DNA of 64,000 nucleotides from an uncultured Dehalococcoidia bacterium. GTDB lineage: Bacteria; Chloroflexota; Dehalococcoidia; Lucifugimonadales; UBA3495. Position 1 is the stretch's first letter. Every line of letters begins with the position of its first letter. The DNA lies in the NCBI GenBank assembly GCA_950072105.1, contig CATMOE010000002.1, forward strand, positions 79,778 through 143,777. Reading direction: 5' to 3'. Under the pieces are notes generated by a model, which saw nothing but the letters and a program-made list of their open reading frames with translations, ran no database searches and was not told the DNA's origin. This document shows, in pieces, positions 31,769-48,167 of this stretch. Position numbers and translations under genes: made by a program.

Positions 31769-31791
31769 AAGTTTTGACTCACTAAATCCTT

Positions 31792-32000
31792 AAAATCCCC
31801 CCAACCCCCCTTTACGAAAGCGGGGTTGGGGGGGTACCCGCTCAGCCGTGTTACTGGCTTTTCGGCGACCCTTGATGGGGATACTTTAATTCAAAATTAT
31901 GGAACCGGCGACTGAAGACTCTCCGTTCGGCGGCATAGCTCAAACCGAGTCTTCCAACCCCCGATCTAGCCCCCTTTCGTAAAGGGGGTTGGGGGATTTC
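31792..32000. repeat. Two REP-like palindromes, family B (AATCCCCCCAACCCCCTTTACGAAAGGGGG), in inverted orientation
   Basis: Copies at 31792-31833 and 31968-32000; relatives at 35963-35995 and 44355-44388. Confidence 0.85.
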
Positions 32001-32001
32001 C

Positions 32002-33213
32002 CTACGCAGTCACCTCGGCCGCTTTTACTTTGCTGGGGGCGTGCTCCAGGTTGAAGAATTTTACGGTGTTGCCGGCCCACATCTTGAGCTTCTCGTCCTC
32101 TGGGACGTTGGCGTAGATCTCTTCAACGATGGGCTTGGTGTCCGGCCACTCACATTCGATGTGGGGGAAGTCGGTGGCGAACATGATGTGGTCCACACCG
32201 ATGTGGTGGCGCAATTCCACGGCCACCCGCTCGTATTGGACGCTGAACAGGATGTGTTCTCTAATGACTTCGCTAGGCAATCGTTTTAGCGGCTTGAAGC
32301 CCAACTGCTCCTCCGCCCATCCGATGTGGCGCTGGTACCACAGGTCCGCGTGCTCCAGCCAGAATGGCACCCAGCCCAGGCGCGTCTCAGCAAAGAACAC
32401 TTGCAGCGAAGGGAACCGGTCGAACACGCCGGAGAAGACCAGCTGCATGATCCCCACCGCCGGCCTCTGGCCGAAGTTGCATACCCATTCCAGTAGAGGC
32501 CGGCGGATCCTCCGCATGGTTTCCGGGTCTTCTATTGGGTACCTGAAGGTGGGCTCGTGCTCACGAGGTCCCGAGCGGTCGAAGGTCACGTGCACCGTCA
32601 CCGGCATGTTCATGTCCACCGCCGCCGCCCAGAACCGGTCGTCCTCGGGCAGGGGGTAGGACTTTCCGTTGGGGTGCGCGCCTAGAACAACCCCTTTCAA
32701 ACCCAACTTGGCGATGTGTTCCAGTTCTTCGATGGCGTCGTCCACGTTGGTCCACGGGATTATCCCCATGCCGATCAGGCGGTCCGGGTCCACCGGGCAA
32801 TACTCCTCGCCCAGCCAGTCGTTATAGGCCCGGATCATCGACTTGTAAACATCATCGTGGCTGATGTTGCGCCACAGGGACGGCCCGGCTACCTGGGCTG
32901 GGAACAACACCTCGCCGTCAAGACCGTCCTGGTCTTGCTCTTGTATCCGCTGCTCCGGCGAACCGATGCCCGCCGCGCCCTCTACCCTCAATCCGAAGGG
33001 CTGCCACTGGCCGGTGGCCCGTCCGGCGCGAAGGTCCAGGAAGTTCGCCTCTCTGAGGGGTTGTCCTTCGATCAGCAACGCGTCGCCGCCGTTGGGCAAA
33101 GTGATGCTGCGGGGAGCGCGGTCGCGGTATTTCTCAGGTACACGGTGTACCCACCGTTCCGGGGGTACTTCCAGGTGGCCGTCGCTGGACATCAGTCGGT
33201 AATCCCGAGCCAT
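32002..33213 (-). CDS. Amidohydrolase_2 family protein (start MARDYRL)
   Basis: SSDGHLEV, DGLDGEVLFP, RAYNDWL, GVFDRFPSL, FATDFPH; RBS GAGGAGG. Confidence 0.92.
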   Translation of the reverse strand: MARDYRLMSSDGHLEVPPERWVHRVPEKYRDRAPRSITLPNGGDALLIEGQPLREANFLDLRAGRATGQWQPFGLRVEGAAGIGSPEQRIQEQDQDGLDGEVLFPAQVAGPSLWRNISHDDVYKSMIRAYNDWLGEEYCPVDPDRLIGMGIIPWTNVDDAIEELEHIAKLGLKGVVLGAHPNGKSYPLPEDDRFWAAAVDMNMPVTVHVTFDRSGPREHEPTFRYPIEDPETMRRIRRPLLEWVCNFGQRPAVGIMQLVFSGVFDRFPSLQVFFAETRLGWVPFWLEHADLWYQRHIGWAEEQLGFKPLKRLPSEVIREHILFSVQYERVAVELRHHIGVDHIMFATDFPHIECEWPDTKPIVEEIYANVPEDEKLKMWAGNTVKFFNLEHAPSKVKAAEVTA

Positions 33214-33521
33214 GAGATCCTCCTCGTGCGATTCGATACGTCTATTCGAGTCTAGGGTTAAACTGTGGGCACATGCTAATACTTCTCGACTAAGGTGGCA
33301 ACTATTGTCCGCCAACGCCACCACAAGTTACGGATATCTCCGTCAGATTGCCCGAAAGACTTAAGCAACGTATAATCGCAGGGATTCTAAGCGCCGGTTC
33401 CGTCCTGCGGCGCGTGCCGAGAATGCGCGCCCGGAAAGCGTGGATAAATAGCGTCGAAAATGACAGTAGGACATCCGGTTAGGCAAAATTCCTAAGCTTG
33501 TTTCCCCAGAGGTGGTACTAA

Positions 33522-34124
33522 GTGCTACGGTCGCTATTCGGAAAAGGGAAGAAAAAAGGCGACGGCTCTCCCTCTTCGCAAGATGACAGTATCCGGGCGG
33601 CAAAGGTTGGGGACGTCGTTTCCATCTCCGGGCTGCGGCTGGAATACGACGATGTGTACTTTTTCATCGAGAAGATAAACCGCTACTCCAGTGAGACTGA
33701 GACTTGGTATGAGGCGCTGTGCGTGGATGGCGATAATCAAGTGTGGATCGATTGGACTGATGGTCACGATCTCACGGTAACAGCCACCGATGATCCTGAA
33801 CCGGTAGGTCTGGGGAGCATTGGGACTACGGAAGAAGAGTTGATTCAACTGGACGAAGAACACTCCATCGACAATTTCATCGAGGTTGAAGGGGACAAGT
33901 ACTATTACCGGAACAGTACCGAAGTGACGTTCTACCAGGACAATCGTGGCCAAGGCGAGGGATTTTATAATTGGGACTTGGTCCACGAGGATGGTGAACA
34001 CGTCTTATCCGTGTCCAAGTGGGAAGGGAAGCCTTTCGAGGCTACGTTCAGCGAGGTGATATCACCGGATAGGATCGTCTTATACAAAGGGGACCGCGGG
34101 GACGCTGGGAAAGGGAGGAAATAA
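33522..34124 (+). CDS. DUF4178-family protein
   Basis: KVGDVVSI..W.E..WIDW..IEVEGDKYYY..YNWD..LSVSKWEG pattern; translationally coupled to a DUF350 gene. Confidence 0.7.
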   Translation: MLRSLFGKGKKKGDGSPSSQDDSIRAAKVGDVVSISGLRLEYDDVYFFIEKINRYSSETETWYEALCVDGDNQVWIDWTDGHDLTVTATDDPEPVGLGSIGTTEEELIQLDEEHSIDNFIEVEGDKYYYRNSTEVTFYQDNRGQGEGFYNWDLVHEDGEHVLSVSKWEGKPFEATFSEVISPDRIVLYKGDRGDAGKGRK

Positions 34125-35026
34125 TGATTGAGAGCATTATCGACACGCTGCAGGCATTCCCACGGGGGCTAGTGTTCGTTGGGTTGGGGTTGGTGGTACT
34201 TCTACTGGCCAAACTGGCGCGAGACTTGATAACGCCATACAAGATCGATCAGGAAGTCGGCGAAAAACAGAATCTAGCGGTGTCTTTGCGGCTGACCGGA
34301 TACCTTGCCGGAGTGATTCTGGTTTTCCTGGGTGCGTTATATCAAAGTCCGACGCTGGTAGGCCCTGAAGGGCTGGGATTCGACCAAGCCTTTGGACAAG
34401 AGGTATTAAGGGTCTTCATTTACTCTCTAGCCGGGATAGTTGCGTTGAACCTGGTTCGGCTGGTGATGGACCGGGTGATACTGTACAAGTTCAAGCTAGA
34501 GGAAGAAGTGGTGCGGGGGCAAAACGTGGGCGCCGGGGCCGCTGAGTTGGGCATGTACGTGGCCACGGGACTGATGATTGCCGGTGCGATTTCCGGCGAT
34601 GCAGCCGGCACGGAGCTCAATGCGGCGTTGATCGCCCTGGCGTTCTTCGGGCTCGGATTGGCATTGCTGGTGGTATTCGCTCTGTTCTATCAGATCACCA
34701 CGCCCTACGATATACACTCGGAGATAGAGGGCAGCAATACTGCGGTGGGTGTCGCCTTCGGTGGCAACTTGGTCGCGATCGGCCTGGTGACCTTTAAAGC
34801 CCTTTTCGGGGATTTTACCGGGTGGGGCGAAAGTATCGCGGCGTTCCTCACATTCGGAATAATCGGGTTTGTTTTGCTATACGTGATGCGGTTTCTGATC
34901 GATCTGCTTCTACTGCCCAAATTCAACGTCTCCCAGGCTCTGGCGAATGGACGGAACGTGGGTGTCGCTGTCATTGAAAGCGGGGTGGTAATCAGCGCGG
35001 CATTGATCCTGTTTCTGGCGATCTGA
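34124..35026 (+). CDS. Tandem DUF350 (YjfL-like) membrane protein
   Basis: Repeated ITPYxIxxEI/V...NxAVG(V/L) units in a hydrophobic multi-TM protein. Confidence 0.85.
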   Translation: MIESIIDTLQAFPRGLVFVGLGLVVLLLAKLARDLITPYKIDQEVGEKQNLAVSLRLTGYLAGVILVFLGALYQSPTLVGPEGLGFDQAFGQEVLRVFIYSLAGIVALNLVRLVMDRVILYKFKLEEEVVRGQNVGAGAAELGMYVATGLMIAGAISGDAAGTELNAALIALAFFGLGLALLVVFALFYQITTPYDIHSEIEGSNTAVGVAFGGNLVAIGLVTFKALFGDFTGWGESIAAFLTFGIIGFVLLYVMRFLIDLLLLPKFNVSQALANGRNVGVAVIESGVVISAALILFLAI

Positions 35027-35038
35027 CCGTTAGCGGGG

Positions 35039-35105
35039 CCTTCGACAGGCTCAGGCCGAACGGAATGAAACACTCCCGCCGTTCGTGGTGAGCCTGTCGA
35101 ACCAC
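35039..35105. repeat. REP-like palindromic pair, family A
   Basis: CCTTCGACAGGCTCAGGCCGAACGG ... CCGTTCGTGGTGAGCCTGTCGAACCAC. Confidence 0.85.
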
Positions 35106-35121
35106 TGTTTTCAACTAGGTC

Positions 35122-35288
35122 TAGTGCTTCATCCAGGTAGAAATGCCGAATGTCGTTCCCACCCTTCCGCCGAAGGGCTGGTGTCGGAAGGACAAAGTGT
35201 GCGACCGAAAGTTGTCCATTCTATTTTCGGAGCAATGACAGGCTGTCGCAGCCAGCTAGTAGACCACAATTAGCTTGACCTAGCACTA
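35122..35288. mobile_element. Possible IS630-like miniature element or remnant
   Basis: Imperfect terminal inverted repeats TAGTGCTtcaTCcA / TAGTGCTaggTCaA starting with TA; the right TA coincides with the stop codon of the adjacent gene. Confidence 0.35.
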
Positions 35289-36386
35289 AGACTCGGCCCT
35301 TGCGCTCTGGATAATCTCTTCCCGGCTTGCTGATTCTCTGGCCTCTTCGTGCTTCTCCTCTAGATACACGAAACCAGCGCCTACGATACGCTCCAACAGC
35401 TGCTCTTCTACGTCTTGCCGGTTTACCACGGGTTCGAGAATTCCGGCAAAGAAACTTTCGTCGCTGATTAGTTCTTGCCAGGTTGACCCGAAGGCATCGA
35501 GGGTCCCGTCGTACAGGCGCAGCAGGAAAAGAGTCCTTATGGGGTCCAGCCCCTCGGCGATAAATACCAGCACACGCAGGTCAGCGCCGCGTCCTGTGTC
35601 GAATTCAACCATATCAGCGTCCTCTTCAGATGCGGTGTCTTTGAAGTGGTCGTACAGGTCGATGTAGGACTCGGTTTCGGCCAGCAGGCGGCCGATGAAC
35701 CTCCGGCCTTCTCGGGTGATGGCGAAAGTGTTGGTTTCTGGAGAGAGGGCTATCAGTTCTTGTGCCTGGAGCAAGTGGGCTATGGATAGCAAGGCATGAT
35801 CAACCACGCCGGGCGGAGATACCTGGAGGCGCAGTTCGTGTTTGTCCATGAAGTAGAGAAGGGTGTGGGTTTGCAGCCATTCCAGAAGTTCGGCTTTGGT
35901 GTCCCAGAAGCCTTGCCGTATCGCGTATTCCAGCGGCTGGTAGTGGCGGTGGATGTGCAGGTGAAATCCCCCAGCCCCCCCTTTCGTAAAGGGGATCTTT
36001 GCGTCCCCTGGTTGCAGATGATTTGTGATCGGGTCAGCCAGGTCTAGAGGCTGGTTGGCATCGTTTTGGAAGGATAGGGTGGAGCGACCGGTTCTCCACT
36101 CATCGAAAGCGTCCAGGATGGTTTCGTAGATGTCTGGTAGGTCTGGATTGGCGCGGACGTCCAACAGGGAGATCACTCGTTGCTGTTGGTCTTCGTCCTC
36201 GGGAAAGACCTGGTCCAAGAAATCGGACAGGGAAGTAGCCGCGGACGGGGACGGCAATTGGATGCGCAGGCCGTCCTCCGGGTCCATACCGTCCAGCGCC
36301 ACATGGAGTTCAAATGCGCCACCTGATTCTGGCGTGGGATGTTGTGGTGATTGGTCTGGGCCGGGAACTGCGCCGCCGTTGTTCAT
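35286..36386 (-). CDS. Hypothetical protein: unannotated N-terminal domain + winged-helix-like region
   Basis: LLQAQELI...FAITREGRRFI wing motif; ATGA overlap with the upstream lipoprotein gene. Confidence 0.7.
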   Translation of the reverse strand: MNNGGAVPGPDQSPQHPTPESGGAFELHVALDGMDPEDGLRIQLPSPSAATSLSDFLDQVFPEDEDQQQRVISLLDVRANPDLPDIYETILDAFDEWRTGRSTLSFQNDANQPLDLADPITNHLQPGDAKIPFTKGGAGGFHLHIHRHYQPLEYAIRQGFWDTKAELLEWLQTHTLLYFMDKHELRLQVSPPGVVDHALLSIAHLLQAQELIALSPETNTFAITREGRRFIGRLLAETESYIDLYDHFKDTASEEDADMVEFDTGRGADLRVLVFIAEGLDPIRTLFLLRLYDGTLDAFGSTWQELISDESFFAGILEPVVNRQDVEEQLLERIVGAGFVYLEEKHEEARESASREEIIQSARAES

Positions 36387-37189
36387 CCAGGCCGGTTCCC
36401 GGTGTTTATCCGCATGGCGCCGCCACCCCCTCTCGCCCCGGAGCGACCCGAAGAGCGGAAGGAAGACCTTGACGACCGGGTGCGGGACACCGCGCTGCTT
36501 TTCTTGAAGGCACCGCTGGTCTTCTGGGTCTGCTGATAGGTTTGGCGGTTGCTGCCGACGTTGTTTCTGGCTTGCTGATATCGAGACCCGGCGAATGACG
36601 CCTGTTTTCGGTTAAAATTGCTGTTTCTTTGCGCTTGCCGGCTATAGGCTGAGGACTGGCGGTATCTGGACCGCTGGTTCCTCATCGTGGATCCCCGGGA
36701 TATGGGAGTAGAGTAGTAATAGCCCCGGGGAGAGATGGCGGAGATCAGCATATAGGTGAACAGGAAATTTCCGGCGCCAAAGGAGCTACGGTAGTACCCG
36801 TTGCCGTTGTGGCCCCTCATGTTGTATTGATTTTCGTTGCCCTTGACGATGGAGAACAATCGATCGTCCTTGGCGTCGTCAATCTCATTGTTGCCGTCCA
36901 GGTCTTCCCATCCTTCCAGGGTCAACCCTTCACCGTCCTGGCTAGCCCGGATCAGAACCAGGCCGTCACCCTCGTAGATCTTGTTGACTTTTTCCTCGAA
37001 TTCCGTGGCGCTCTTGGAGTTTTTGAACGCCTCTTGAACGTCGTCCAGGTTGATCCGGCCCGCCGCTCCGTCGGTGGCTGCCCAGTTGTCGTAGGACGCT
37101 CCGGAGCCACATGCGGCGATCAGTGGCGATGCGGCTACGACGCCGCCCAAGGAAACCGCCGTCCACTTGCTGAAACGTTTGCCAGCCAT
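36383..37189 (-). CDS. Lipoprotein with a DxDxN Ca-binding-like loop and a Gln/Arg/Ser/Gly-rich tail (YjfM/DUF1190-like architecture)
   Basis: Lipobox LIAAC; EDLDGNNEID; hydrophobic FLFTYMLISA; tail SSRSSFRSSGRSGARGGGG. Confidence 0.75.
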   Translation of the reverse strand: MAGKRFSKWTAVSLGGVVAASPLIAACGSGASYDNWAATDGAAGRINLDDVQEAFKNSKSATEFEEKVNKIYEGDGLVLIRASQDGEGLTLEGWEDLDGNNEIDDAKDDRLFSIVKGNENQYNMRGHNGNGYYRSSFGAGNFLFTYMLISAISPRGYYYSTPISRGSTMRNQRSRYRQSSAYSRQAQRNSNFNRKQASFAGSRYQQARNNVGSNRQTYQQTQKTSGAFKKSSAVSRTRSSRSSFRSSGRSGARGGGGAMRINTGNRPG

Positions 37190-40100
37190 CTAGTTCCTCC
37201 TTGTCGATCCCGAATCCCCAGCCAGGGCCATTGGCCGGTCCGCTATGAGTGTTTGTACGTCGTCGTTCAACTGAACTTTAGGTGTAGAGAGGGCGTATCC
37301 CTTGGCCGAAGGGAAGGCAAATAGGCGAAACATGAACTCGGCGTTCACCCGCTCCCAGAAGCCTTGCCACGCTTGAAAACTACGTTGGATGTAGAGGGCC
37401 ACCGCCGATTTGTGGTCGGTGGACGCCAGCAGTTGGTTGGAGATAGAGTCCTGCAACTCGACGATGTGCGCCTTCCAAATCTCGTCGCAGGCCTTCAAGT
37501 AGATCGAACGGGCCAGGGCGGCATACTCTTTGGCGCCCTGGCTACTCTCCAGATCTGCCATTCTGTCGATGAACAAGTGGCCAAGTTCTTCGGGAAGGAT
37601 GTTCATGTCCCATCCCCTCAGTGAGGAGCAATCGACTTGGTAGTCCAGTTGAACTTCTTCAACCAGCCGGTCGAACTGGGCATCGTATTCTTCCAAAGTG
37701 ACCTGGGGAAAGTGGGCGGACACGAGTTCAATAGCCCTTTCCTGGGCCTGATCGCGCCAGAGAGATGGACCGGAGCCCGGTGAACCGGCAACGGCTACTT
37801 CCCCGCGCCGCCGGTAAAACAATCTGGTCTGGTGGTCCAGCACCGAGGCGTAATCCTGTACCAAGGCGCGTTGGGTCTCGCCCTCATGTTCGGCGATACC
37901 TTGCACCTCTTGAACGTGCCGGTCGACGTCTTGGCCCGAATAGTAGGTTCGGCCCATTCCATCCAAGTCGCGGCGCTTGGTCAGCTTGAGCACGCCGTCC
38001 ACGTGAAGGTTAAGCAACCGGTCTTCCAAGGACAGGAAAGTTTGGGACACACCGAAGCTGCCTTGACGGCCGCTGCGGCCGTTCAGTTGGAGGTCGATTC
38101 GCGGAGTATCGTTGAGTTCGGTGCCAATCACCCGAAGACCTAAAGCGAAGTCCAGCGATCGCGGCTTGGCGGTAATGCCTGAGGTGTCATGGAGCCGAAC
38201 GGTGAGCCTGAGGCCGTTCGGGGAACCCTCTTTTTCTACGCGAAGGCCGGAATCGGCTAGCAGTAGAGATTTCAAGACGCTGAACTCCCGGGGAGACAGG
38301 CAGTTGATCTCAACGGAGCCGTCTTCTCGCTCGAGAGTCTGGTGGACCAATCTGATGCAACGCTGGGCGATCTGGCCGTCTAAGCCCGGCGCCAGCAGGA
38401 TGTCGGTACCCCGGCCGGCCATGTTGGTTGCTACCGTGGCCGCGCCGAAGGAGCCGGCATTCCTGATGATTTCCGCTTCGGTGTCCGAATTGACGGCGTT
38501 GAGCAGGTTATGAGGAATCGCTTTATCCGAGAGCATTCGGCTGATCTCTTGGGATTGCTCCACCGTGAGGGTCCCCACCAGGACCGGCTGTCCCAGTTCA
38601 TGACTGGAGATCACCTGATCGATGATCGCCGAAGTTTTTTCAGCGTCGGTGAGATAGACCCGATAGCCAAGATCCACTCGTTGCAGGGGATGCATCGGCG
38701 GCAGCACGGTTACCGGTAAACCGTACTTCTGCTGAAATTCGTCCTGGGAACCGATGGCGGTGCCGGTCATTCCGCAAAGAGATTGGAACTGCTTGACGAA
38801 CCCTTCAACGGAGATATGACCCAGGGTTTCACCCTCCGGATTGGGAGTAAGCCCTTCTTTGGCTTCCAGAGCGGGCTGCAGGCCGTGCTGGTAGATGGCG
38901 TCGGGCTTAGGCCGCCCCGTGGCTTTGTCGATAAGCACCAGTTGGTCCTCGGCCACCAGGTAATCCACGTCCCGCTCCAGCAGCAGGTAGGCCCGGAGCA
39001 TCTGATAAACCTGGTTGCCCAGATTGTATTGCCGGGCCAGGCGGGTGGTTAGGCTCGCCGCCTTCTTGCGGCGCTCTGCCAAGGGCATTTCGCGGTTGGT
39101 CCAAAGGGACTCCAGAGACTCCTCCATCGAACGGCCGTCGTAGAAAGGACCCAAACATTGGGTAAGGAAATCCCGGCCCTTTTCCGCCAGGGTAACGAAA
39201 CGTCTATCTGGGTCGATAACGTAATAAAGCTCCGATGTGAGGCCGGTCTGTTCCTGCTCAGCTTCAGATTTAATCTCTTTGAAGCGTCGGGGGTTGTCAC
39301 GTAATCGCTGCTCTAGGGCGGGGTTATCCGGTTCGGCTAGGAGCAGCTTGGCTAGGATGTGGGAGGCTCCATCTAGGCTCGTGTCCGGCCGGGCGAGTTC
39401 ACCCGCTAATTCCCGGACAACGTCCCTTTGCAGCCGAATCAGTTGGGTGACGGCCTTCTTCACTTTGGCCGTGGGACTACGGTTTCCCAGGGGAGCGCCG
39501 GATATAATCATCGGCGTTGACGCTTCGTCGATCAGCCCGTGATCCGCTTCGTCGATGATGGCCGCATCCAGCTTGCCTTGAACGCGGGACGAGGCGGTTG
39601 TCTTAAGATTGTCACGGAGATAGTCGAACCCCATCTCCCGCATAGTGCTGTAGACGATCGCCATCTGGTAGTTATATCTTCGTTCGTCGTCCTCCATGTA
39701 TTCGAGCACGGCCCCTACGGTGATGCCCAGTGACTGGTAAACGGGAGCCAGTAGGTCGGCGTCCCTGGCCGCCAGGTAATCGTTGGCGGTGATGACATAA
39801 ACTGAGGTCCCAGCCACGGCATGTAACACTGCCGGAAACGCCCCGGCGACGGTTTTGCCTTCGCCGGCGTTCATCTGGACGATATTTCCTTGAAATAGGT
39901 GCAGTCCAGCCAATAACTGCTCCTCGGTAGCTTCAAAGGTGAGATGCCCTTTCTCGTCTTGCCTTCGCAATGCTTGGTAAAACCCGGCGGGCATGGAGAT
40001 GTCCCAAGGCGGCCTAACTTGGATCTCCCGGTGCACCATTAACATGGCATCAACGATGGTCTGTTGATCGGGGCCGGTTGCGGCTGTCCCGGATGACCCT

Positions 40101-40450
40101 CGGGAGAGGTCTGCCGTTCGCCAACAGGTTTGCAGGGATTCAGGAAGGGATTTCCGGTCGAAGCCGGTGTCAAACAGCCGCCAGGCGCCAAGGCGGCGAC
40201 TGATGACCTCGCTAACGATGGCGAAGACTTCCGGCAGGACTTGACTGACGCTCGGATGCGGCGGACGTGTCCGTAGGCGCGCCATCGCGTCCTTGAGATC
40301 CGTGTCGGAATAGGCTGTTACGTCGTGCCGGCGAATCGCGTCCAAAACCGCCCGGCTGTCTTTCGGCGGCCCGAGCTTCGGATGTGAAGTCGGCGGTCCC
40401 TGGTTAACCGGCCCAAACGTCAATGCTGATGATCCCAACAAGGAATTCAC
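37190..40450 (-). CDS. Divergent SecA paralog (accessory SecA-like ATPase), no C-terminal zinc-binding motif
   Basis: QMNAGEGKT, TANDYLAARD, GFDYLRDN, IDEADHGLIDEASTPMIISG, GMTGTA, ATNMAGRGTDI, RIDLQLNGRSGRQG. Confidence 0.92.
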   Translation of the reverse strand: MNSLLGSSALTFGPVNQGPPTSHPKLGPPKDSRAVLDAIRRHDVTAYSDTDLKDAMARLRTRPPHPSVSQVLPEVFAIVSEVISRRLGAWRLFDTGFDRKSLPESLQTCWRTADLSRGSSGTAATGPDQQTIVDAMLMVHREIQVRPPWDISMPAGFYQALRRQDEKGHLTFEATEEQLLAGLHLFQGNIVQMNAGEGKTVAGAFPAVLHAVAGTSVYVITANDYLAARDADLLAPVYQSLGITVGAVLEYMEDDERRYNYQMAIVYSTMREMGFDYLRDNLKTTASSRVQGKLDAAIIDEADHGLIDEASTPMIISGAPLGNRSPTAKVKKAVTQLIRLQRDVVRELAGELARPDTSLDGASHILAKLLLAEPDNPALEQRLRDNPRRFKEIKSEAEQEQTGLTSELYYVIDPDRRFVTLAEKGRDFLTQCLGPFYDGRSMEESLESLWTNREMPLAERRKKAASLTTRLARQYNLGNQVYQMLRAYLLLERDVDYLVAEDQLVLIDKATGRPKPDAIYQHGLQPALEAKEGLTPNPEGETLGHISVEGFVKQFQSLCGMTGTAIGSQDEFQQKYGLPVTVLPPMHPLQRVDLGYRVYLTDAEKTSAIIDQVISSHELGQPVLVGTLTVEQSQEISRMLSDKAIPHNLLNAVNSDTEAEIIRNAGSFGAATVATNMAGRGTDILLAPGLDGQIAQRCIRLVHQTLEREDGSVEINCLSPREFSVLKSLLLADSGLRVEKEGSPNGLRLTVRLHDTSGITAKPRSLDFALGLRVIGTELNDTPRIDLQLNGRSGRQGSFGVSQTFLSLEDRLLNLHVDGVLKLTKRRDLDGMGRTYYSGQDVDRHVQEVQGIAEHEGETQRALVQDYASVLDHQTRLFYRRRGEVAVAGSPGSGPSLWRDQAQERAIELVSAHFPQVTLEEYDAQFDRLVEEVQLDYQVDCSSLRGWDMNILPEELGHLFIDRMADLESSQGAKEYAALARSIYLKACDEIWKAHIVELQDSISNQLLASTDHKSAVALYIQRSFQAWQGFWERVNAEFMFRLFAFPSAKGYALSTPKVQLNDDVQTLIADRPMALAGDSGSTRRN

Positions 40451-41515
40451 CTAACCCATTGCCTCCTGCAATCCCTGCCATGTATAGCGGTGCGAGCTGA
40501 TGTACACCAATAGGTCTCCAGGGGACAAAAATAGGTCTCCGAACTTGAAATGGGGCTTTTTATCCCGAATCACCCCAAGCAGGTTTATATCCTTGCTCAG
40601 TAGCTTCACGGCTACCTCTTGGTAGGTTAACCGCTCTCCAACCGGAGGGTCAACCATCGTGCTGGCCATTGTGCCTTCGACCTTATTGCTGGTCATGGCC
40701 TGGGCCAAGATGGTCACGCCCGGGTCCTGGGTTTCCTGGATCAAGAGATTGTTCGCCATATGTATCGTATAAACCAGGGAGACATCCGCCAAGTTGCTGA
40801 ACAAGAGCTCGTGACTGAGACTCAGACATTCGGCGACGACCCTCACGTGGGGGCTCAGGTGGTTGATCACCGAAGCTACCGACGCTACGACGCTGTCGCT
40901 GTTGGGATCGTCGTAATCGGTGCTCAGTATGATGGCCTTGGACGCCCTGCTGAGTTGGGCCCGTTGGTAAGTCTCTTGTTCGAGAGGAGAGCCACGGACG
41001 AAAGAGACGTTGGGGTGGCTGAATGGCAGGGTCTGTAATTTGTCGGTGATCACGACAATGTCAACTTTTTTGTGGTTGTTGTCGGAAACGAACTCCTCCA
41101 CGATGTGGCGGACCCTGGTCTCGTTCGGGAAATGGATGATTAGCAAATGATCTTTGGATTGCACGGTCGCCATACCGTTTTGCTCCCTCATGCGAAGGTC
41201 GAATATCCAGTCAACCAACATCCCGGCGGTAGTGGTAAAGGCCACCAAACCGACCAGAACGATAAAAAACACAGTTCCGATACGGGCGCCAACCGTAGAC
41301 GCGGACAGATCCCCGTATCCAATGGTTGTGATAGAGATGATGCTATACCAGAAACTGTCTCCGAGATTATATTCCGGGTGGACCGGGGCCTCGAAGTAAA
41401 AAAAAGTGAGGGCGTTCCCAATCACACTGGCAACCAGCACCGCGAACATGGACAGTAAGCCGAGGGTTCTCCTCCGCCGGATCCGGTGCATCAACCTTTT
41501 TATCGAATAAAACAT
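40451..41515 (-). CDS. 2-TM potassium channel with RCK/TrkA-N-like domain
   Basis: Selectivity filter TTIGYGD; cytoplasmic FVRGSP..RAQLSRASKAIIL. Confidence 0.92.
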   Translation of the reverse strand: MFYSIKRLMHRIRRRRTLGLLSMFAVLVASVIGNALTFFYFEAPVHPEYNLGDSFWYSIISITTIGYGDLSASTVGARIGTVFFIVLVGLVAFTTTAGMLVDWIFDLRMREQNGMATVQSKDHLLIIHFPNETRVRHIVEEFVSDNNHKKVDIVVITDKLQTLPFSHPNVSFVRGSPLEQETYQRAQLSRASKAIILSTDYDDPNSDSVVASVASVINHLSPHVRVVAECLSLSHELLFSNLADVSLVYTIHMANNLLIQETQDPGVTILAQAMTSNKVEGTMASTMVDPPVGERLTYQEVAVKLLSKDINLLGVIRDKKPHFKFGDLFLSPGDLLVYISSHRYTWQGLQEAMG

Positions 41516-41536
41516 GTGGCGGTGTTCGGGCGCGGG

Positions 41537-42988
41537 TCACCGGTCCAGAGGGACCGGTGATTGGTTAAGTAGCTTCATGATGACTAGCCCTGCTTGATGG
41601 CCGGGGCCGTCGCACTCGTCCAGACGGGTCAAAAGATGTCCCCCAGCCCGCAAGATTTTATCGGTGACGGTCGGCTCAGATCGGCGGAACTCTTCTCCCA
41701 AATGCGAGTCCAGTGTCCAATCAGCGGTGACCGAACATTCCAGCCCGGCCCGCTGGGCAACATCCAGGTACTCCTGACGCTCCCTGCTGAACTCTTTTTC
41801 ACTCTTGAAGGCCAAAGGCATCACGTAGAATTCCCTGGACAGATACAATCCCAGTTCGTTATCGAATACTTGCATCAGGTCGGAGAAGGACACCCAGCCT
41901 TCCAGGGCGAAGAAAAAGTTTTCGGGAATATCCTGGGGCACGCGATGGTAGTAGAAATCTTCATCCGCCTCAACCATCTTCACCGTGACTGGAAGCTTTT
42001 TTTGGTAACCCAGGATGCGTTCCGCCGCGTCGTCCTTAAGGAATAAGAAGGGTATGTTCCCATTGGTGGCGTCCACTAAGACTTGAGTACCATCGATATC
42101 ATACAACAACGCCGTGTGCTGCCAGAATCGCATGTAACGCTTGGAAAAGCGAAAATCGAACGTGGTTAGAAGCTCCCGTAGTTTCTCGACAGGCACGGGG
42201 CCGGTAGCGTTTTCCCCGGCGATGATGTATTCCGACTGAAGTCCGTAGTGATCAGTGAGGAACTTCAGCGCCTGCACTTTTTCCGAGCAGATCGCCCCGG
42301 CGCCTTCCATGATGTTATCAATGGTCTCGTCTCCCGATTTGTAGACCAGTTTCTTGCCGATGAACCGGGAGTAGTTTTCAAATTGGGCATCCCAGATCGT
42401 TTTGGCCAGTCCTTTCAACAGCTTTATCTTGTGGCTGGTGGATCCCAGTTGAAGAATGGCATCGGTCTCGTGGCTGCCGAACTCGTGAATCAGGGAATCT
42501 CGCACGAATCCAGAGTATCTGGATTTGTTGCGGAGCCACTTGCGCCGATGGAAGCCCGTCCAATTGCGGCTGTATTGCAGGTTGATGCGGTCTATCGTTA
42601 AATCAACCACCGAAACGTCTTGACCCTCCACCTGAAGCTGGTGATTTGTGGGGACCTGGTCCAAAGCGAGGGACTCTTCGCCCTCTTTGAACGCCATACC
42701 GGAAAACATGTCCTTCAGTTCACCGGCGTCCGTGCTCAGGTAGACCAGGTCTTGCATCGCATAGAGGGCGGCGGCGGAGGGCTGGGTGATGCGGGATTCT
42801 TGAAGAAGTTGGCTGATGGGAGGTTGCTTCAGATATTTGTCCAGCAAGCCTCCTAAAGACAAATAGGCGTCGCCGGGGTCCATACGTAGAGTACATCTCC
42901 GGTTGGACACCGTGTCCCACAGTTGAAGGATCTGATTGTTGGTGTTTTCCACTAAGGGCGCAAACCCGCTGTTCTTAATCTTGATCAT
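41537..42988 (-). CDS. Transglutaminase/NAT-superfamily (Cys-His-Asp) enzyme with an unannotated N-terminal domain
   Basis: GAICSEK (C234), WQHTALLY (H291), VLVDATNG (D306). Confidence 0.7.
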   Translation of the reverse strand: MIKIKNSGFAPLVENTNNQILQLWDTVSNRRCTLRMDPGDAYLSLGGLLDKYLKQPPISQLLQESRITQPSAAALYAMQDLVYLSTDAGELKDMFSGMAFKEGEESLALDQVPTNHQLQVEGQDVSVVDLTIDRINLQYSRNWTGFHRRKWLRNKSRYSGFVRDSLIHEFGSHETDAILQLGSTSHKIKLLKGLAKTIWDAQFENYSRFIGKKLVYKSGDETIDNIMEGAGAICSEKVQALKFLTDHYGLQSEYIIAGENATGPVPVEKLRELLTTFDFRFSKRYMRFWQHTALLYDIDGTQVLVDATNGNIPFLFLKDDAAERILGYQKKLPVTVKMVEADEDFYYHRVPQDIPENFFFALEGWVSFSDLMQVFDNELGLYLSREFYVMPLAFKSEKEFSRERQEYLDVAQRAGLECSVTADWTLDSHLGEEFRRSEPTVTDKILRAGGHLLTRLDECDGPGHQAGLVIMKLLNQSPVPLDR

Positions 42989-43038
42989 GATTCCGAGTTA
43001 TTGACGCGCTTGCCGCCGGTGGCCGGGCCGGTCCAGTG

Positions 43039-44268
43039 TTATACGGCAGCGTGAGGTCCCAAGCCCCACCGGGCGGCGTATTGATCGAAAGTGAACGTGC
43101 TCTTCTGAACGAACTCCCCTTGGGTGGTTAACGCGTAAACCGATGGGAGGCCGATGCCGTTGAACGCGTGGGCCTTGGTCATCGTGTACGATCCGGCATT
43201 GTTGAATATTACCTTGTCGCCAACCTTCAGCGGGTCCTGGAACCGGTATTCACCTAAGATGTCTCCGGCCAGACAAGTGCATCCAGCCAGCAGATATTTG
43301 TGGGGAGCGTCGTCGTCGTGGCCGACCACGTCGGGCTCGAAATCGTATTCGAATACCTCCGGCATGTGATTGATGCTCGTGTCCAGCACGGCCAACATCG
43401 AACCCTCACTGGGGAATACGTCCAGAACCGTGGACACGATGTACCCGGCGGCTCGGATGAGAGCGGACCCGGGTTCAAAGAACACGTCCACTTTAAGGCG
43501 AGCTTTGAGAAAATCCAAAGCCTGGTGCAGACCGTCAAGGTTTTGCCCGTCCTCGAATAGATAGCCACCACCCAAATTGATCCATTCGAGGTTCTCCAGG
43601 ATGCTACTGGCGCTGGAGTAGAGGTGGCGCACCGTGGAGAGCAACTCGCCGAAGTTGGGCGAGTCGCAGTTTGAGTGGAACAGGATGCCTCGGACCCCAG
43701 CCAGGCGGGCCGGGTCGTCATGGAACGCGGCCACCAGGTCTTCCAAGGGAACGCCCAGCTTCGATGCGGGCCGGCAAGGGTCGTAGCGCTCGTCGCCCAG
43801 GAAAGAAAGTTGAGGATTTACCCTCAGCCCACAGCTGGCGCTATCTTTGATGCGGTCGCGGTACATGTCCCATTGGCTCAGGGAGTTGAATGACACGTAG
43901 TCGCATAGGGAGCCGATCTCCTCTACTTCATCGCTCCTTAGGCCAGGCGCCGTGATGTGAAGGGTGCCGCCGCTCGTATTGGCTTTTTGAGCCAGTTTGG
44001 CTTCGAAAAGGGAGCTCACAGCGAATCCGTCCAGGCGTGGGGACATGAGCTTCAAAGCATCGACGAAGGAGAAGGACTTTATCGCGAACAGTACCTGGCA
44101 CCGGCCTTCTTGGCGCAGCCGATCGGCATGGGTGAGGAGTTGGTCGAGGACTGCCTCGTCGTATACGAAGGCCGGAGTAGAGATGTGGGCAAGGCCGCCG
44201 GGAAAGGCTTTGGCGTCGTCCAAAAGGGAGGAAGGCGTTGAATTTGCGCCGGCCTGTTTGGTACTCAT
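43039..44268 (-). CDS. nspC: Carboxynorspermidine/carboxyspermidine decarboxylase
   Basis: TPAFVYD, LFAIKS (PLP Lys), RVNP..YDPC..SKLG, FHSNC, WINLGGG, EPG, HMPEV, GCTCLAGD, YTMTK..FNG. Confidence 0.88.
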   Translation of the reverse strand: MSTKQAGANSTPSSLLDDAKAFPGGLAHISTPAFVYDEAVLDQLLTHADRLRQEGRCQVLFAIKSFSFVDALKLMSPRLDGFAVSSLFEAKLAQKANTSGGTLHITAPGLRSDEVEEIGSLCDYVSFNSLSQWDMYRDRIKDSASCGLRVNPQLSFLGDERYDPCRPASKLGVPLEDLVAAFHDDPARLAGVRGILFHSNCDSPNFGELLSTVRHLYSSASSILENLEWINLGGGYLFEDGQNLDGLHQALDFLKARLKVDVFFEPGSALIRAAGYIVSTVLDVFPSEGSMLAVLDTSINHMPEVFEYDFEPDVVGHDDDAPHKYLLAGCTCLAGDILGEYRFQDPLKVGDKVIFNNAGSYTMTKAHAFNGIGLPSVYALTTQGEFVQKSTFTFDQYAARWGLGPHAAV

Positions 44269-44354
44269 TGAACGTACATGCACGCCATAGACGTTAGGGA
44301 GTGTTTCTAAGATTGAGGAATGGGAGGGTGGTTGATGGGTATTTTAACATACGG

Positions 44355-44388
44355 GAATCCCCCCAACCTCCTTTACGAATGGGGGGCT
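44355..44388. repeat. REP-like palindrome, family B
   Basis: GAATCCCCCCAACCTCCTTTACGAATGGGGGGCT. Confidence 0.75.
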
Positions 44389-44468
44389 CTTTCGGTCTCA
44401 TCCACACGTGGCTATGGAAGATAGGGACGTTTGCTTCTATCTTGGCGGTCGAGCCGGAAGGCGTTAGG

Positions 44469-45872
44469 CTACACCCTGGTTTGCTGGCCGGGTATGCCTG
44501 ATCCGGCGATGCCATTGGTGTTGCCGGACGGCGTTTCCGCCGATGCGCCTTGGGAGTTTTCCACGGTGACCGGGTTGATAGGGCGCCGGACGGAGTTGGG
44601 AGCGATTCCCGCTTTTAAGGCGGACATGACGCCGGCCGCCTCCCAATAGTTATCAACGATGTGAAGTTGCCCCTGCTGCCAGGGTAGTTGGGTCAGGTTG
44701 TTTCTCATGAGGTTTCGGTTTTCCCGCACGGCGATGACCGGGATGCCCTGTTCCAGCGCGGCCAGGGTGGGCAGGCCCAGGCATCCGTCGGGTATCACCA
44801 AGCAAGAAACGGCACTAGCGGTGAACACGCCGGGATTTCGGAGTGCTTCTCGATCGGTGACGATTCTGGGGCTTTTTTGTAGGCCCTTGAGGATGGACTG
44901 CAAGAAGGTGGTTGATATGGCTTCAGCGGCCATGCGGGGGTCGACGATGCCGGTGTCCGCGTCCAAGACTTCCTGGGACTCCATCATGGGGGAGTGGGCC
45001 GAGGGCACGTCGTAGATGCTGGAGATGGTGTGGGTAAGCATGGATTCCACGCCACCCCAGGGATTGACCATGCTGCCGCCGCTGTTGAAGTAGTCGCCGT
45101 GGTAGCTGGTGGGAACGGTTATGACCGACGATATGGCCACGGCGTCGTATTCCCCGCGGTGTCTGTCCAGCAGTTCAAGCACGTGTTCCAAGTCTTCCAC
45201 CCGTCCCGCCGCCCGGGACGATGAAGTGTACTCGGAGATCATCACAAGTGGCGGAGTCAACTCGATCACCAGTGGGCAGATCAGCCCATAGGATGCCCGG
45301 GCGGCGTTAACCGAGTTGACTGTCATTGTGTGAAATAGCCGGTCGGTATGCGAGTTCATCAGAACCAGGACACGGTTAGACCGAACCGGCTGCAACCCAG
45401 CCGTGCCCATCAGCAAACGGCAGATGACGCTGCCTTCCACGTATAGCCCGTTGCCCGGAATCTCGTTGATGTCCGAGGCGTTGACCACGTTTGGGTGGGT
45501 GACCAAAGTGTCGCAGACGGAGGCCAGCAGTTGAGCCACGGGCGTGGCATCACCGGCGTGCCCCCCGATTTCAGCGCCTATCCCGGTTGGTACCAGCAGG
45601 ATGGCGTTGAAGCTCCCGGTATTTTCCACTTGGCGGTGGCGAAATTCCAGGATGGAGTTATTGGGCAACCGGCTGGAATCGTTGCCGTCATCGAAGGTTG
45701 TGACCTCGCACCGGTATCCGGTGGCGTCCGAAGACGTGACCACCAACCGCACTGGCGAGACTCCACCGGGCAACTTTTCTCGTGTCTTCTGGGACAGCCA
45801 TTCCAATAGGTTGCTGCTGTCCGGCGGCGGGGGTAGATCGAGTCCAATTTCCGAAAGCATCACGGATTTCAA
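44469..45872 (-). CDS. DUF3326-family protein with an N-terminal extension
   Basis: VPTGIGAEIGGHAGDA, THPNVVNAS, LYVEG, NPWGGVE..TH, PSAHSP, DPRMAAE, IAVREN. Confidence 0.85.
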   Translation of the reverse strand: MKSVMLSEIGLDLPPPPDSSNLLEWLSQKTREKLPGGVSPVRLVVTSSDATGYRCEVTTFDDGNDSSRLPNNSILEFRHRQVENTGSFNAILLVPTGIGAEIGGHAGDATPVAQLLASVCDTLVTHPNVVNASDINEIPGNGLYVEGSVICRLLMGTAGLQPVRSNRVLVLMNSHTDRLFHTMTVNSVNAARASYGLICPLVIELTPPLVMISEYTSSSRAAGRVEDLEHVLELLDRHRGEYDAVAISSVITVPTSYHGDYFNSGGSMVNPWGGVESMLTHTISSIYDVPSAHSPMMESQEVLDADTGIVDPRMAAEAISTTFLQSILKGLQKSPRIVTDREALRNPGVFTASAVSCLVIPDGCLGLPTLAALEQGIPVIAVRENRNLMRNNLTQLPWQQGQLHIVDNYWEAAGVMSALKAGIAPNSVRRPINPVTVENSQGASAETPSGNTNGIAGSGIPGQQTRV

Positions 45873-46753
45873 TTTCTTACATCCTCATGATTGGTTGATT
45901 CAGTGGTTTCGAAGGTAGTCTTCCGGCTGGGAACCTTGTCACAGGGGGACGACCACATCTCCGCCACGTCGATGGCGCGCATGAATTCTACGTTGGCGAA
46001 GGTGCGGATGTGGGTGATCAATTGCTCCAACATTTTCAGGCGTCCGGGACGGCCGATGTATTGGGGGTGCATGGTTAGGGTGAAGGCCCGGCCATAGTGA
46101 TATAGGCCCTCAAACTCGGCTGCCCAAGTTCCGTAGACTTCCTCCGGGTTGCGCATGGGGCCCAGCCGCCCCGCTGCCGGCGCGTAGACGAAATTTGGGG
46201 CGTCGTCCAAGAGCCAATGGATGGGAATCTCCACCAGGCTTTGGGGAGTGCCCGGATTGAGCATGTATGGCGCGTCATCGCCCATCAGACTGCTGTCGTA
46301 CAGGAAGCCGTGGGAGGCCAGCAGGTCCACCGAGCGCTCGCTCAACTCCCAACTAGGGGACCGGTAGCCTCGGGGGGCTTCTCCGGTGATGTCGCCAAGG
46401 ATGGAGCTGCCCTGGTGCAGCACCTCTTCTTCCTTCTCCGGCGTTAAAGAGGCTGGAGGTTCGTGCATGTACCCGTGGTGGGCGATCTCATGCCCCCGGC
46501 GGGAGATCTCTTTGACCATCTCAACGTGGGTTTCGGCGACATAGCCTGGAACGTAAAAGCTGGCCTTGATGGAGTGGCTGTCCAGCATGTCCAGGATACG
46601 GGGGGTTGCGACGCTGGGGCCGTATTCGGCCATGGACATCAGGCTGGGAAGCTGGGCGAAGTTGGGGTCGCGGTTCAACCACGAAGAGACGCCGTCGACG
46701 TCGAACCCCAACATCACCACGCATTGAATGTCTCCGGGCCAGATACCGGACAT
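45869..46753 (-). CDS. Polysaccharide deacetylase (CE4, PuuE/HpPgdA-like)
   Basis: GFDVD, EYG, HEIAHHGYMHE, GYRSP, YDSS, LTMHP. Confidence 0.9.
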   Translation of the reverse strand: MSGIWPGDIQCVVMLGFDVDGVSSWLNRDPNFAQLPSLMSMAEYGPSVATPRILDMLDSHSIKASFYVPGYVAETHVEMVKEISRRGHEIAHHGYMHEPPASLTPEKEEEVLHQGSSILGDITGEAPRGYRSPSWELSERSVDLLASHGFLYDSSLMGDDAPYMLNPGTPQSLVEIPIHWLLDDAPNFVYAPAAGRLGPMRNPEEVYGTWAAEFEGLYHYGRAFTLTMHPQYIGRPGRLKMLEQLITHIRTFANVEFMRAIDVAEMWSSPCDKVPSRKTTFETTESTNHEDVRN

Positions 46754-46778
46754 GTTGTTCCTCCCCGGTCTTGATTGA

Positions 46779-48056: not shown

Positions 48057-48076
48057 ATTAGGTTTGCCGGAGACCG

Positions 48077-48136: not shown

Positions 48137-48167
48137 AAACGCCTGCTTTCATCAGTCTTGCCGGATA

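Follow-up and report, generated by a model that had tools for sequence, protein, structure and literature searches.

What brings together genes for a second SecA, a tailed lipoprotein, a potassium channel, polyamine enzymes and proteins without an assigned family is the question raised by a gene cluster of an uncultured Dehalococcoidia bacterium (NCBI GenBank assembly GCA_950072105.1). The cluster is located in a 64,000-nucleotide stretch of contig CATMOE010000002.1 (positions 79,778 to 143,777 of the forward strand), which is referred to here as the window and whose numbering is used throughout. An earlier reading of the letters, the original prediction, had described eight of the genes as a candidate envelope system. 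The comparison with related loci reveals that the genes form a conserved unit. As the best explanation of this unit we propose, with a confidence somewhat short of even, that it is a cell-envelope module conserved in marine Dehalococcoidia and linked to PspA, with three sub-modules: a polyamine and enzyme arm, an export arm and a membrane arm. We tentatively favour a function in which a polyamine is attached to the tail of the lipoprotein and the SecA paralog handles this same lipoprotein.

Conservation of the gene cluster

The set of related loci was obtained by scanning one genome per species with the alignment of CHD483, the Cys-His-Asp enzyme of the cluster, and the best 80 of the 107 relatives were used. 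The record titles name Chloroflexota, Chloroflexi or Dehalococcoidia for 79 of these loci and an 'uncultured bacterium' for one. The genes were counted by tblastn of the window proteins, and many of the misses correspond to contig ends or to the 10-kb limit of the flanks. The gene of the SecA paralog was detected in 72 of the 80 CHD483-selected loci, those of the lipoprotein and of u366 in 66 each, DUF350 in 56 and DUF4178 in 53. The NspC-like decarboxylase and the DUF3326 protein are each encoded in 54 loci, both together in 49, and the K+ channel is encoded in 35. Where at least 2.2 kb of sequence is available beyond u366 (52 loci), DUF350 and DUF4178 are each found in 50. The genes that flank the cluster in the window recur far less often: the polysaccharide deacetylase gene in five loci, the seryl-tRNA synthetase gene in three, and each of the two amidohydrolase genes in one. 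The co-occurrence in other genomes on which the original prediction hinged is thus borne out, with the cluster genes recurring together in up to 72 of the 80 related loci compared with one to five for the flanks. The co-occurrence of DUF3326 with the NspC-like gene in 49 loci indicates that DUF3326, which had been left out of the cluster as first drawn, also belongs to it; with this gene the cluster comprises nine genes (Table 1).

Table 1. Genes of the cluster in window coordinates.
Product	Length (aa)	Position	Strand	Family or motif
DUF4178 protein	200	33522-34124	+	Pfam PF13785
Duplicated DUF350 (YjfL-type) membrane protein	300	34124-35026	+	PF03994, two repeats
u366, predicted cytoplasmic	366	35286-36386	-	without Pfam/NCBIfam family
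Lipoprotein	268	36383-37189	-	LIAAC lipobox
SecA paralog	1086	37190-40450	-	four Pfam SecA domains
K+ channel, two transmembrane segments, with RCK domain	354	40451-41515	-	Ion_trans_2, Slo-like_RCK
CHD483, predicted cytoplasmic enzyme	483	41537-42988	-	without Pfam/NCBIfam family
NspC-like pyridoxal-phosphate-dependent decarboxylase, carboxy(nor)spermidine decarboxylase family	414	43039-44283	-	TIGR01047
DUF3326 protein	467	44469-45872	-	PF11805

The eight open reading frames (ORFs) first described are located where they had been placed, and the gaps of 50, 21, 0, 0 and -4 nt between the minus-strand genes were confirmed. The same holds for the coupling of DUF4178 and DUF350, which overlap by 1 nt, and for the convergence of the DUF350 gene on the minus-strand operon. 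The end of the cluster needed correction: position 44268 corresponds to an ATG within the NspC frame, and the ORF extends to 44283.

The phyletic distribution of the genes agrees with the synteny. CHD483 and the lipoprotein were found in the same six of 401 Dehalococcoidia genomes, and neither of them in the other 395. In four of the six genomes the CHD protein is only about 35% identical, and at this distance the order CHD, c34, PaaK-like ligase, c17, SecA paralog, lipoprotein, u366 is retained. In a phylum-wide sample CHD483 was detected in one of 401 genomes, that of the window itself; this sample held few close relatives and so says little about the range. Five genomes contain the genes for CHD and NspC, with or without DUF3326, standing apart. 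All five encode the SecA paralog beside the lipoprotein elsewhere, and each has exactly two SecA genes.

The genes linked to PspA

The family assignments of the two plus-strand genes were confirmed by profile searches. The DUF4178 protein matches PF13785 with 41.1 bits (cut-off 25, E 2.4e-10) over profile positions 3–136 of 136. The DUF350 protein matches PF03994 with 177.9 bits (cut-off 26, E 1.2e-52) in two repeats, both of which were also recovered by the profile search of the genome. The DUF350 family is wider in the class than the cluster, being present in 54 of the 401 genomes, in 36 of them above the cut-off.

As stated in the original prediction, no PspA is encoded in the 64 kb of the window. 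A pair of genes for PspA (241 amino acids) and PspAA (92 amino acids) is located on the same contig, about 87 kb from the cluster. In the relatives, PspA (6.5e-27) and PspAA (6.7e-32) are the conserved neighbours of DUF4178; they are present in 40 and 39 of the 80 loci, respectively. Where the sequence extends at least 2.5 kb beyond DUF4178, the PspA–PspAA pair adjoins this gene in 32 of 35 relatives, which substantiates the predicted link to the phage shock protein (PSP) system. On the DUF4178 side of the window cluster, where most relatives carry PspA–PspAA, two Amidohydro_2 genes (30968–33324) are found; this replacement is common to the closest relative, L004, whose CHD protein is 93% identical.

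The K+ channel was recognized correctly (Ion_trans_2 9.4e-12, Slo-like_RCK 2.4e-10), and the selectivity-filter motif TIGYGD can be read in its sequence. With a presence in 35 of the 80 loci, it is an optional member of the cluster.

The SecA paralog

The SecA-like ATPase proved to be a true paralog encoded beside a canonical SecA in a genome with a single SecY. The domains SecA_DEAD (4.4e-73), P-loop_SecA (6.7e-50), PP_bind (2e-14) and SW (2.9e-11) are all detected above their cut-offs. The paralog reaches neither of the models for canonical SecA (NF009538, 505.8 bits against a cut-off of 814; TIGR00963, 501.7 against 800), whereas the canonical SecA of the genome, a protein of 892 amino acids with a SEC-C tail, scores 1110.2 and 1027.6 bits, respectively. 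The curated SecA2 models are likewise missed (TIGR04397, 441.2 against 1085; TIGR03714, 416.4 against 930; TIGR04221, 406.1 against 725; NF012136, 332 against 1100), and on each of them the paralog is outscored by the canonical SecA of the same genome. At a genome completeness of 92%, a single match to SecY was obtained and no second one.

The paralog shares about 40% identity with the canonical SecA, in the motor blocks only, and is about equidistant from all solved SecA and SecA2 structures (360–295 bits). The motifs GEGKT (Walker A), DEAD, MTGTA, TNMAGRGTD and GRSGRQG are kept in 62 orthologs, with Walker B and the arginine finger of the SecA superfamily included. The protein contains inserts at about residues 61–140, 321–400, 441–473 and 688–760 and lacks the SEC-C zinc tail. 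When 65 paralogs were placed in a tree with six canonical SecAs of genomes that carry the system, they grouped together with support 1.0 and on much longer branches. Judged from these scores and from the tree, the paralog is a fast-evolving clade outside all curated SecA and SecA2 models.

The lipoprotein and u366

The lipoprotein carries the lipobox given in Table 1, and Lgt is encoded in the genome. The N-terminal domain contains the motifs FE.RVNEIYEGD and WEDLNGNNEIDD and is acidic, with 21–26 Asp and Glu versus 7–12 Arg and Lys residues. The tail that the original prediction had noted is present: about 115 amino acids, basic and rich in Ser, Arg, Gln and Tyr, with 17–26 Arg and Lys versus 0–4 Asp and Glu residues. 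The mean column identity of the lipoprotein alignment (A3) is 63% with the tail included, so that the tail is kept in sequence and not in composition alone. In one genome the lipoprotein frame contains one in-frame TGA (G758:C3:2050700-2051485), and in another one in-frame TAG (G528:C50:20466-21239); these stops could be sequencing errors, pseudogenes or recoding.

The assignment of the lipoprotein to YjfM/DUF1190 had to be abandoned. PF06693 is significant in none of 26 orthologs; it does not match the window protein, and the best of the 26 is a single one at E 0.27 (cut-off 22 bits). In three of 35 distant relatives the profile scores 18.3–19.5 bits, below the cut-off, over the hydrophobic segment and the tail. 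Nor did hhalign against the E. coli protein detect a relation to YjfM (probability 0.5%). By eye, the order of elements is YjfM-like (lipobox, acidic motif, short hydrophobic segment, tail rich in Ser, Gly and Arg), which is a likeness of form.

The product of the gene following the lipoprotein, u366, was modelled with a predicted local distance difference test score (pLDDT) of 89 and a predicted template modelling score (pTM) of 0.81. Residues 160–250 of the model superpose on the winged helices of PadR and MarR with VIA-align Z scores of 6–6.8, in agreement with the winged helix-turn-helix protein first proposed. Residues 23–149 superpose on ubiquitin-like, PB1 and DIX domains (Z about 6) and would form an N-terminal beta-grasp domain. 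The C-terminal part is helical and strongly acidic in the model, and the median net charge among 30 homologs is -35.5; the basic lipoprotein tail and the acidic u366 are thus complementary in charge. With the u366 model, Foldseek retrieved no PDB structure at E≤0.001; the protein has no Pfam match to PadR or MarR, and the Atlas search returned no usable match. The presumed recognition helix is, by eye in alignment A2, poorly conserved and without basic residues.

The polyamine pair

The assignment of the decarboxylase to NspC stands as a family relation and not as an equivalog. The protein aligns over its full length with TIGR01047 (E 1.6e-89), and its best solved relatives are carboxynorspermidine decarboxylases (PDB 9eaf, 6e-76). 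The score of 300 bits is under the equivalog cut-off of 409, and the substrate may therefore differ. The gene is the only one of its kind in the genome. No Sacchrp_dh_C match, which would indicate a carboxynorspermidine synthase of the saccharopine-dehydrogenase type (CANSDH), was detected in the genome at 92% completeness.

The DUF3326 protein matches PF11805 with 304.4 bits (cut-off 25, E 1.2e-90), and a sequence search of the PDB returned no match at E≤1. In pavettamine biosynthesis, according to the available part of the report, PavB, a DUF3326 protein, and PavA, which contains an NspC-like domain, are both needed for the triamine backbone (bioRxiv 10.64898/2026.06.12.731819). This precedent and the lack of a CANSDH-type gene suggest that DUF3326 is the likely partner of the NspC-like enzyme. 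By analogy, it is the probable condensing or reducing enzyme of the pair, and the two proteins together probably make a polyamine. The decarboxylase here stands alone, without the Rieske fusion of PavA, and in the part of the report that is available the pathway also includes a JmjC-like PavC, which has no counterpart in the cluster.

The Cys-His-Asp enzyme CHD483

The residues C234, H291 and D306, on which the name of the enzyme was based, are invariant in 23 homologs of 58–86% identity (alignment A1). CHD483 is 58–96% identical across the 120 homologs listed, and 825 matches at E≤0.001 were obtained among 8000 candidates scored. In the structural model a helix starts at residue 234, and residues 291–298 and 301–306 are strands, which would place the Cys where a helix begins and the other two residues on successive strands. 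A transglutaminase/NAT fold had been predicted, NAT being arylamine N-acetyltransferase, and the model agrees with this: residues 142–333 superpose on members of the superfamily with VIA-align Z scores of 6.4–8.4. The highest-scoring structures include TglA (9crn, 8.4), factor XIII (4kty, 8.2), NAT1 (2ija, 8.1), GdmF (8oom, 8.0) and LapG (7.6). All of the top 13 rows belong to the transglutaminase/NAT/papain-like superfamily (Z 7.2–8.4), in a range (Z 7–8) that the tool rates as common and with a model core that is partly of low confidence. CHD483 shows no Pfam family at E≤0.01, Transglut_core and Acetyltransf_2 included, and its profile found no match among PDB sequences at E≤10; a Foldseek search of the PDB with the model gave nothing at E≤0.001. 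The protein thus resembles the superfamily in the modelled fold and in the Cys-His-Asp arrangement and differs from it in the lack of a Pfam or PDB sequence match and in its additional domains.

These are an N-terminal region, residues 17–141, which superposes on ubiquitin-like beta-grasp domains (VIA-align Z 5.4–7.0), and a conserved C-terminal domain (residues 380–475). The latter contains the invariant residues C459, G461 and H464 (RLDECDGPGH), which, as read from the sequence, may bind a metal or form another active site. A shared ancestry of the beta-grasp domains of CHD483 and u366 is not supported by hhalign, which finds no relation between the two alignments (probability 1.1%).

Variant arrangements in the wider family

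The profile of the lipoprotein N-terminal domain matches 175 cluster representatives at E≤0.001, and the motif FE.RVNEIYEGD is common among them. A metagenome scan with distant members yielded 80 loci. In all 44 metagenome loci with room downstream, a u366 homolog directly follows the lipoprotein gene on the same strand; distant u366 homologs checked by hhalign gave probabilities of 97.2% and 99.5%. The lipoprotein–u366 pair is therefore the constant unit of the system. The recurrent members besides this pair are DUF350 and, in Dehalococcoidia, the SecA paralog and DUF4178 with PspA–PspAA.

Eight metagenome loci (L102, L103, L107, L108, L109, L111, L112 and L113) represent a form without SecA. 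The gene order in this form is AdoMet (S-adenosylmethionine) decarboxylase or NspC, DUF3326, duplicated DUF350, lipoprotein, u366 and CHD homolog, followed in some cases by a PaaK-like gene and then by genes for an SNase-like protein and an RCK K+ channel. Sulfatases, a PEP-CTERM protein and a DUF7133/HEAT/cytochrome c protein are encoded nearby. As a guess from these neighbours, the form without SecA probably stems from a lineage other than Chloroflexota. Since variants without SecA exist, the paralog is to be regarded as an addition and not as part of the core. Of the dedicated SecA first proposed, the paralogy was confirmed and the core membership was not.

In four loci (L126, L131, L144 and L161) a minimal triad of lipoprotein, u366 and GNAT genes was found, with no CHD or SecA gene within the contig stretch; the GNAT protein is above its Pfam cut-off. 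Two loci, L153 and L166, have the order SecA, lipoprotein, u366 with a near-canonical SecA (803 and 821 bits versus the cut-off of 814), which may be either a paralog or the sole SecA of the organism.

Among the Dehalococcoidia loci, 59 contain polyamine genes and 15 a PaaK-like ligase and/or c17, one locus having both. The loci of the PaaK-like/c17 variant are L048, L049, L054, L060, L063, L066, L068, L069, L072, L075, L076, L078 and L081–L083. All 15 encode the K+ channel, and no PspA gene is within reach; DegV, a PadR regulator and a tandem universal stress protein are often encoded as well. The PaaK-like ligase matches NF045666 with 1.3e-30. A relation of c17 to GNAT is a lead only: the Pfam matches are below threshold (E 0.0026–0.07), and a home-made profile gave only 10–18 bits for five of five GNATs in a set of seven sequences.

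Presence in RNA libraries

Six metatranscriptome runs hold 43–75% of the sampled words of the stretch. In four of these runs, which come from four different studies, contigs cover 28–30 of the 30 bins between 33000 and 48200, and they bridge the u366/lipoprotein/SecA and the SecA/channel junctions. These contigs give presence only, as strand, starts and level are not derivable from them. Given the coverage in four runs, the system is likely to be used by its hosts in the ocean.

Proposed function and alternative explanations

We propose that the DUF3326 protein and the NspC-like decarboxylase would make a (nor)spermidine-type polyamine locally. The cysteine of CHD483 would then form a thioester intermediate and, from it, an amide bond to the polyamine. 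The preferred target would be the tail of the lipoprotein from the same cluster, a basic and conserved stretch that contains Gln. CHD483 would in this way be the transglutaminase-chemistry counterpart of the ATP-grasp peptide–spermidine ligase that is encoded after the DUF1190 gene in E. coli, yjfM–yjfC. The ideas of the original prediction that NspC supplies the polyamine and that the Cys-His-Asp enzyme replaces the ligase are both contained in this proposal and are as conditional as the rest of it. The SecA paralog is presumed to be an active ATPase which, via the single SecYEG, would bring about the export or insertion of the lipoprotein, whose gene is the next one downstream. The acidic u366 may hold or sense the basic tail on the cytoplasmic side, serving as an adaptor and possibly as a regulator. 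DUF4178 and DUF350, with PspA–PspAA beside them in most relatives, would monitor and repair the membrane, and the RCK K+ channel, where present, would balance cations. Across all variants, the enzymatic role in the system may be described as amide-forming or acyl-transferring, performed by CHD483 or by a GNAT. The supply of the amine or acyl component would vary, being provided by DUF3326 with NspC or AdoMet decarboxylase, or by the PaaK-like ligase.

The more far-reaching version, in which the lipoprotein–u366 pair is the heart of a protein-polyamination system, a transglutaminase-fold enzyme loads the Gln-bearing tail, an independently evolved fifth kind of accessory SecA serves this single client and the wiring to PspA–PspAA (ESCRT-III) runs through DUF350 and DUF4178, is distinctly improbable with all its parts taken together. 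If this version is true, it would give the first example in bacteria of an envelope protein that is covalently marked with a polyamine and linked to a Sec motor of its own.

Several observations weigh against the proposed route. The lipoprotein, u366, CHD, DUF350 and DUF3326 are encoded without any SecA in the eight metagenome loci described above, so a SecA of its own is not a general requirement of the lipoprotein. The paralog has not retained the motif at the tip of the two-helix finger of canonical SecA, and pushing through SecY in the canonical manner is therefore not assured. The hydrophobic segment of the lipoprotein, with 17 residues and a mean Kyte-Doolittle value of 0.9–1.6, is borderline for a membrane helix, and Gln is unconserved in the tails of the distant relatives. 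The CHD483 model is of moderate quality (pLDDT 69.7, parts of the core <50), and transglutaminases, NATs, amide synthases and proteases tie in Z, so that the enzyme may be a transamidase, an N-acyltransferase or a protease. The six positive genomes of the class represent three families only, and their co-occurrence counts are not independent. Carry-over of DNA into the RNA libraries is possible. Finally, the replacement of the polyamine genes by PaaK-like ligase and GNAT-type proteins in variant loci favours acyl-CoA chemistry on a small amine.

This last point leads to the main rival explanation, which we consider unlikely, if less so than the other rivals. CHD483 would be an NAT-like acyl-CoA:polyamine N-acyltransferase, and its product, an N-acyl polyamine, would act on or in the membrane. 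In variant loci a GNAT would help or replace CHD483, and the PaaK-like acyl-CoA ligase would feed it. The lipoprotein, u366, DUF350 and PspA would sense and buffer the effects of the product, and SecA would export the lipoprotein or other clients independently of any modification. The structural comparison is compatible with this route, as NAT1 (Z 8.1), the amide synthase GdmF (8.0) and an NAT malonyltransferase (7.5) tie with the transglutaminases. An Atlas match to arylamine N-acetyltransferase clusters (score 0.87–0.88) is a lead only. The 15 loci with the PaaK-like ligase and/or c17, the lipoprotein–u366–GNAT triads and the five genomes in which CHD and NspC, with or without DUF3326, stand apart from the export arm point in the same direction. 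On the other hand, no Acetyltransf_2 Pfam match was detected in CHD483, and the distance of 57 residues between its Cys and His is nearer to the spacing in transglutaminases than to that in NATs. The small-molecule route also leaves the strictly conserved tail of the lipoprotein without a role, and the exact phyletic match between CHD and the lipoprotein (six of six) suggests a tighter link than a diffusible metabolite needs.

Another explanation is inherited synteny: the genes for polyamine metabolism, for an accessory SecA of general use, for the lipoprotein and its regulator, and for a stress module of the PSP type would be neighbours by descent in one clade and not parts of one system. The separation of the two halves in five genomes, the coming and going of the K+ channel, polyamine, PaaK-like and PspA genes, the far wider occurrence of DUF350 (54 of 401 genomes compared with six) and the origin of nearly all genome loci from one class would be expected under this explanation. 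It is nevertheless very improbable: the genes flanking the cluster are unconserved (1–5 of 80 loci), the gene order survives down to about 35% identity, and all five split genomes retain both halves. Moreover, a different order of the genes (DUF3326, DUF350, lipoprotein, u366, CHD, channel) is found repeatedly on unrelated contigs of metagenomes, and the starts and stops of the genes touch or overlap in the window.

In the least probable explanation, CHD483 would be a cysteine protease of the LapG or pseudomurein-endoisopeptidase type. Its cleavage of u366 or of the tail of the lipoprotein would release a signal, and u366 would then regulate transcription through its winged helix. This accords with the Z scores of LapG (7.6), the putative cysteine protease 3isr (7.6), CPR-C4 (6.4) and PeiW/PeiP (6.2–6.7) and with the PadR/MarR-like winged helix of u366. 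It leaves unexplained why the cluster is so tightly coupled to genes for polyamine synthesis (49 loci with both) and is at odds with the poorly conserved presumed recognition helix, which lacks basic residues.

Comparison with known systems

The polyamination of the lipoprotein tail that we favour is best compared with the PSP-linked polyamine operons, including yjfIJKLMC and ygiBC of E. coli, which are widespread and still without a known mechanism. In the annotation of E. coli K-12, yjfM is followed by yjfC, encoding peptide–spermidine ligase; a review on TolC cites Pederick 2023 as the primary work. The text available of a survey of PSP systems describes for the yjfIJKLMC type a PspA–CesT/Tir component, the ATP-grasp peptide–spermidine ligase, DUF350, a DUF1190 lipoprotein and DUF2491, and for other species also a K+ channel (PMC11237479). 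The combination of ATP-grasp ligase, DUF350, DUF1190 and K+ channel is there one of two related operon kinds, the other being made up of DUF350, DUF4178, a lipoprotein and a spermine synthase.

The cluster resembles the yjfIJKLMC type in the nearby PspA-family gene (in relatives), the DUF350 membrane protein, the ligand-gated K+ channel and a lipoprotein in which an acidic motif and a short hydrophobic segment precede a tail rich in Ser, Gly and Arg, as well as in an enzyme that, going by its model, would be able to form an amide with a polyamine. It differs in that the ATP-grasp ligase, CesT/Tir (DUF2170) and DUF2491 are missing, the lipoprotein is not detectably DUF1190, DUF350 is duplicated and the partner of PspA is PspAA. 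The SecA paralog, u366, the Cys-His-Asp enzyme and the pair of DUF3326 and NspC-like proteins are additions. The cluster may thus represent a second, non-homologous enzyme solution in the PSP–polyamine context, with a transglutaminase/NAT fold instead of ATP-grasp, which narrows the likely shared chemistry to an amide bond to a polyamine near a tailed lipoprotein.

The same survey text mentions a PSP group with a fusion of a 7TM (seven-transmembrane) domain and spermine synthase, an 8TM DUF350, the Ctha_1186 lipoprotein and DUF4178 (PMC11237479). As far as this group is described there, it shares with the cluster an 8TM-type DUF350 coupled to DUF4178, a lipoprotein, a polyamine enzyme and the PspA link. 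DUF3326 and the NspC-like enzyme stand here in the place of the spermine-synthase fusion, a CesT/Tir protein is lacking, and the SecA paralog, CHD483 and u366 are present; for the lipoproteins the comparison is one of descriptions. The pairing of DUF3326 with a carboxynorspermidine-decarboxylase-like enzyme is shared with PavA/PavB, within the available part of that report, and the cluster adds evidence for a role of DUF3326 in polyamine synthesis.

Accessory SecA2 systems are of two types, the SecA2-only type and the SecA2–SecY2 type, which exports modified serine-rich adhesins. Similar to these systems, a diverged second SecA is encoded here beside the canonical one, with a single SecY as in the SecA2-only type, and its gene is near that of a Ser-rich candidate substrate and of a possible modifying enzyme. 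In contrast to them, the paralog scores below all four curated models, has inserts of its own and no SEC-C tail, and is found in a PSP/polyamine context without Asp or glycosyltransferase genes. The cluster offers a new clade of accessory SecAs that falls into none of the curated SecA2 families and whose obvious candidate client is the product of a neighbouring gene. CHD483, the N-terminal domain of the lipoprotein and u366 represent three sizeable protein families without a Pfam model, in a host group, the marine Dehalococcoidia, that is abundant.

No account of this combination of genes was found in the full-text literature searched, in line with its original labelling as a candidate undescribed system; the supplements of PMC11237479, which were outside that search, may list related neighbourhoods. 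Within the same limits, the literature contains no SecA paralog or transglutaminase-fold enzyme in PSP/polyamine operons or in Dehalococcoidia, and the words 'SecA' and 'transglutaminase' are absent from the available text of the survey itself.

Flanking sequences

The start of the DUF3326 gene overlaps the stop of a polysaccharide deacetylase gene (45869–46753) by 4 nt, and a seryl-tRNA synthetase gene (46779–48056) is located 25 nt upstream of the latter. The minus-strand transcription unit of this genome may therefore start further upstream than DUF3326. A promoter and terminator scan of positions 33000–48500 gave counts not above those of shuffled sequences (5 versus 6.6 and 13 versus 14.5), so no operon boundaries are drawn from it. 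An origin of the cluster from a mobile element or a defence island finds no support, as the GC content is uniform along the window and the annotated ORFs include neither an integrase nor a transposase (a PADLOC scan was not run).

The gap in which the DUF350 and u366 genes converge contains, at 35041–35101, a palindromic element resembling repetitive extragenic palindromic (REP) sequences. As RNA, the element folds with an energy of -43.3 kcal/mol (z -3.99). A second copy is found 12 kb away, at 23310–23370 (four arm matches versus none expected). The contigs of the four metatranscriptome runs often break or rejoin at 35039–35106, with differing loop letters, and the bin of highest contig depth is located here. 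The element looks like a member of a dispersed repeat family and perhaps acts as a two-way terminator.

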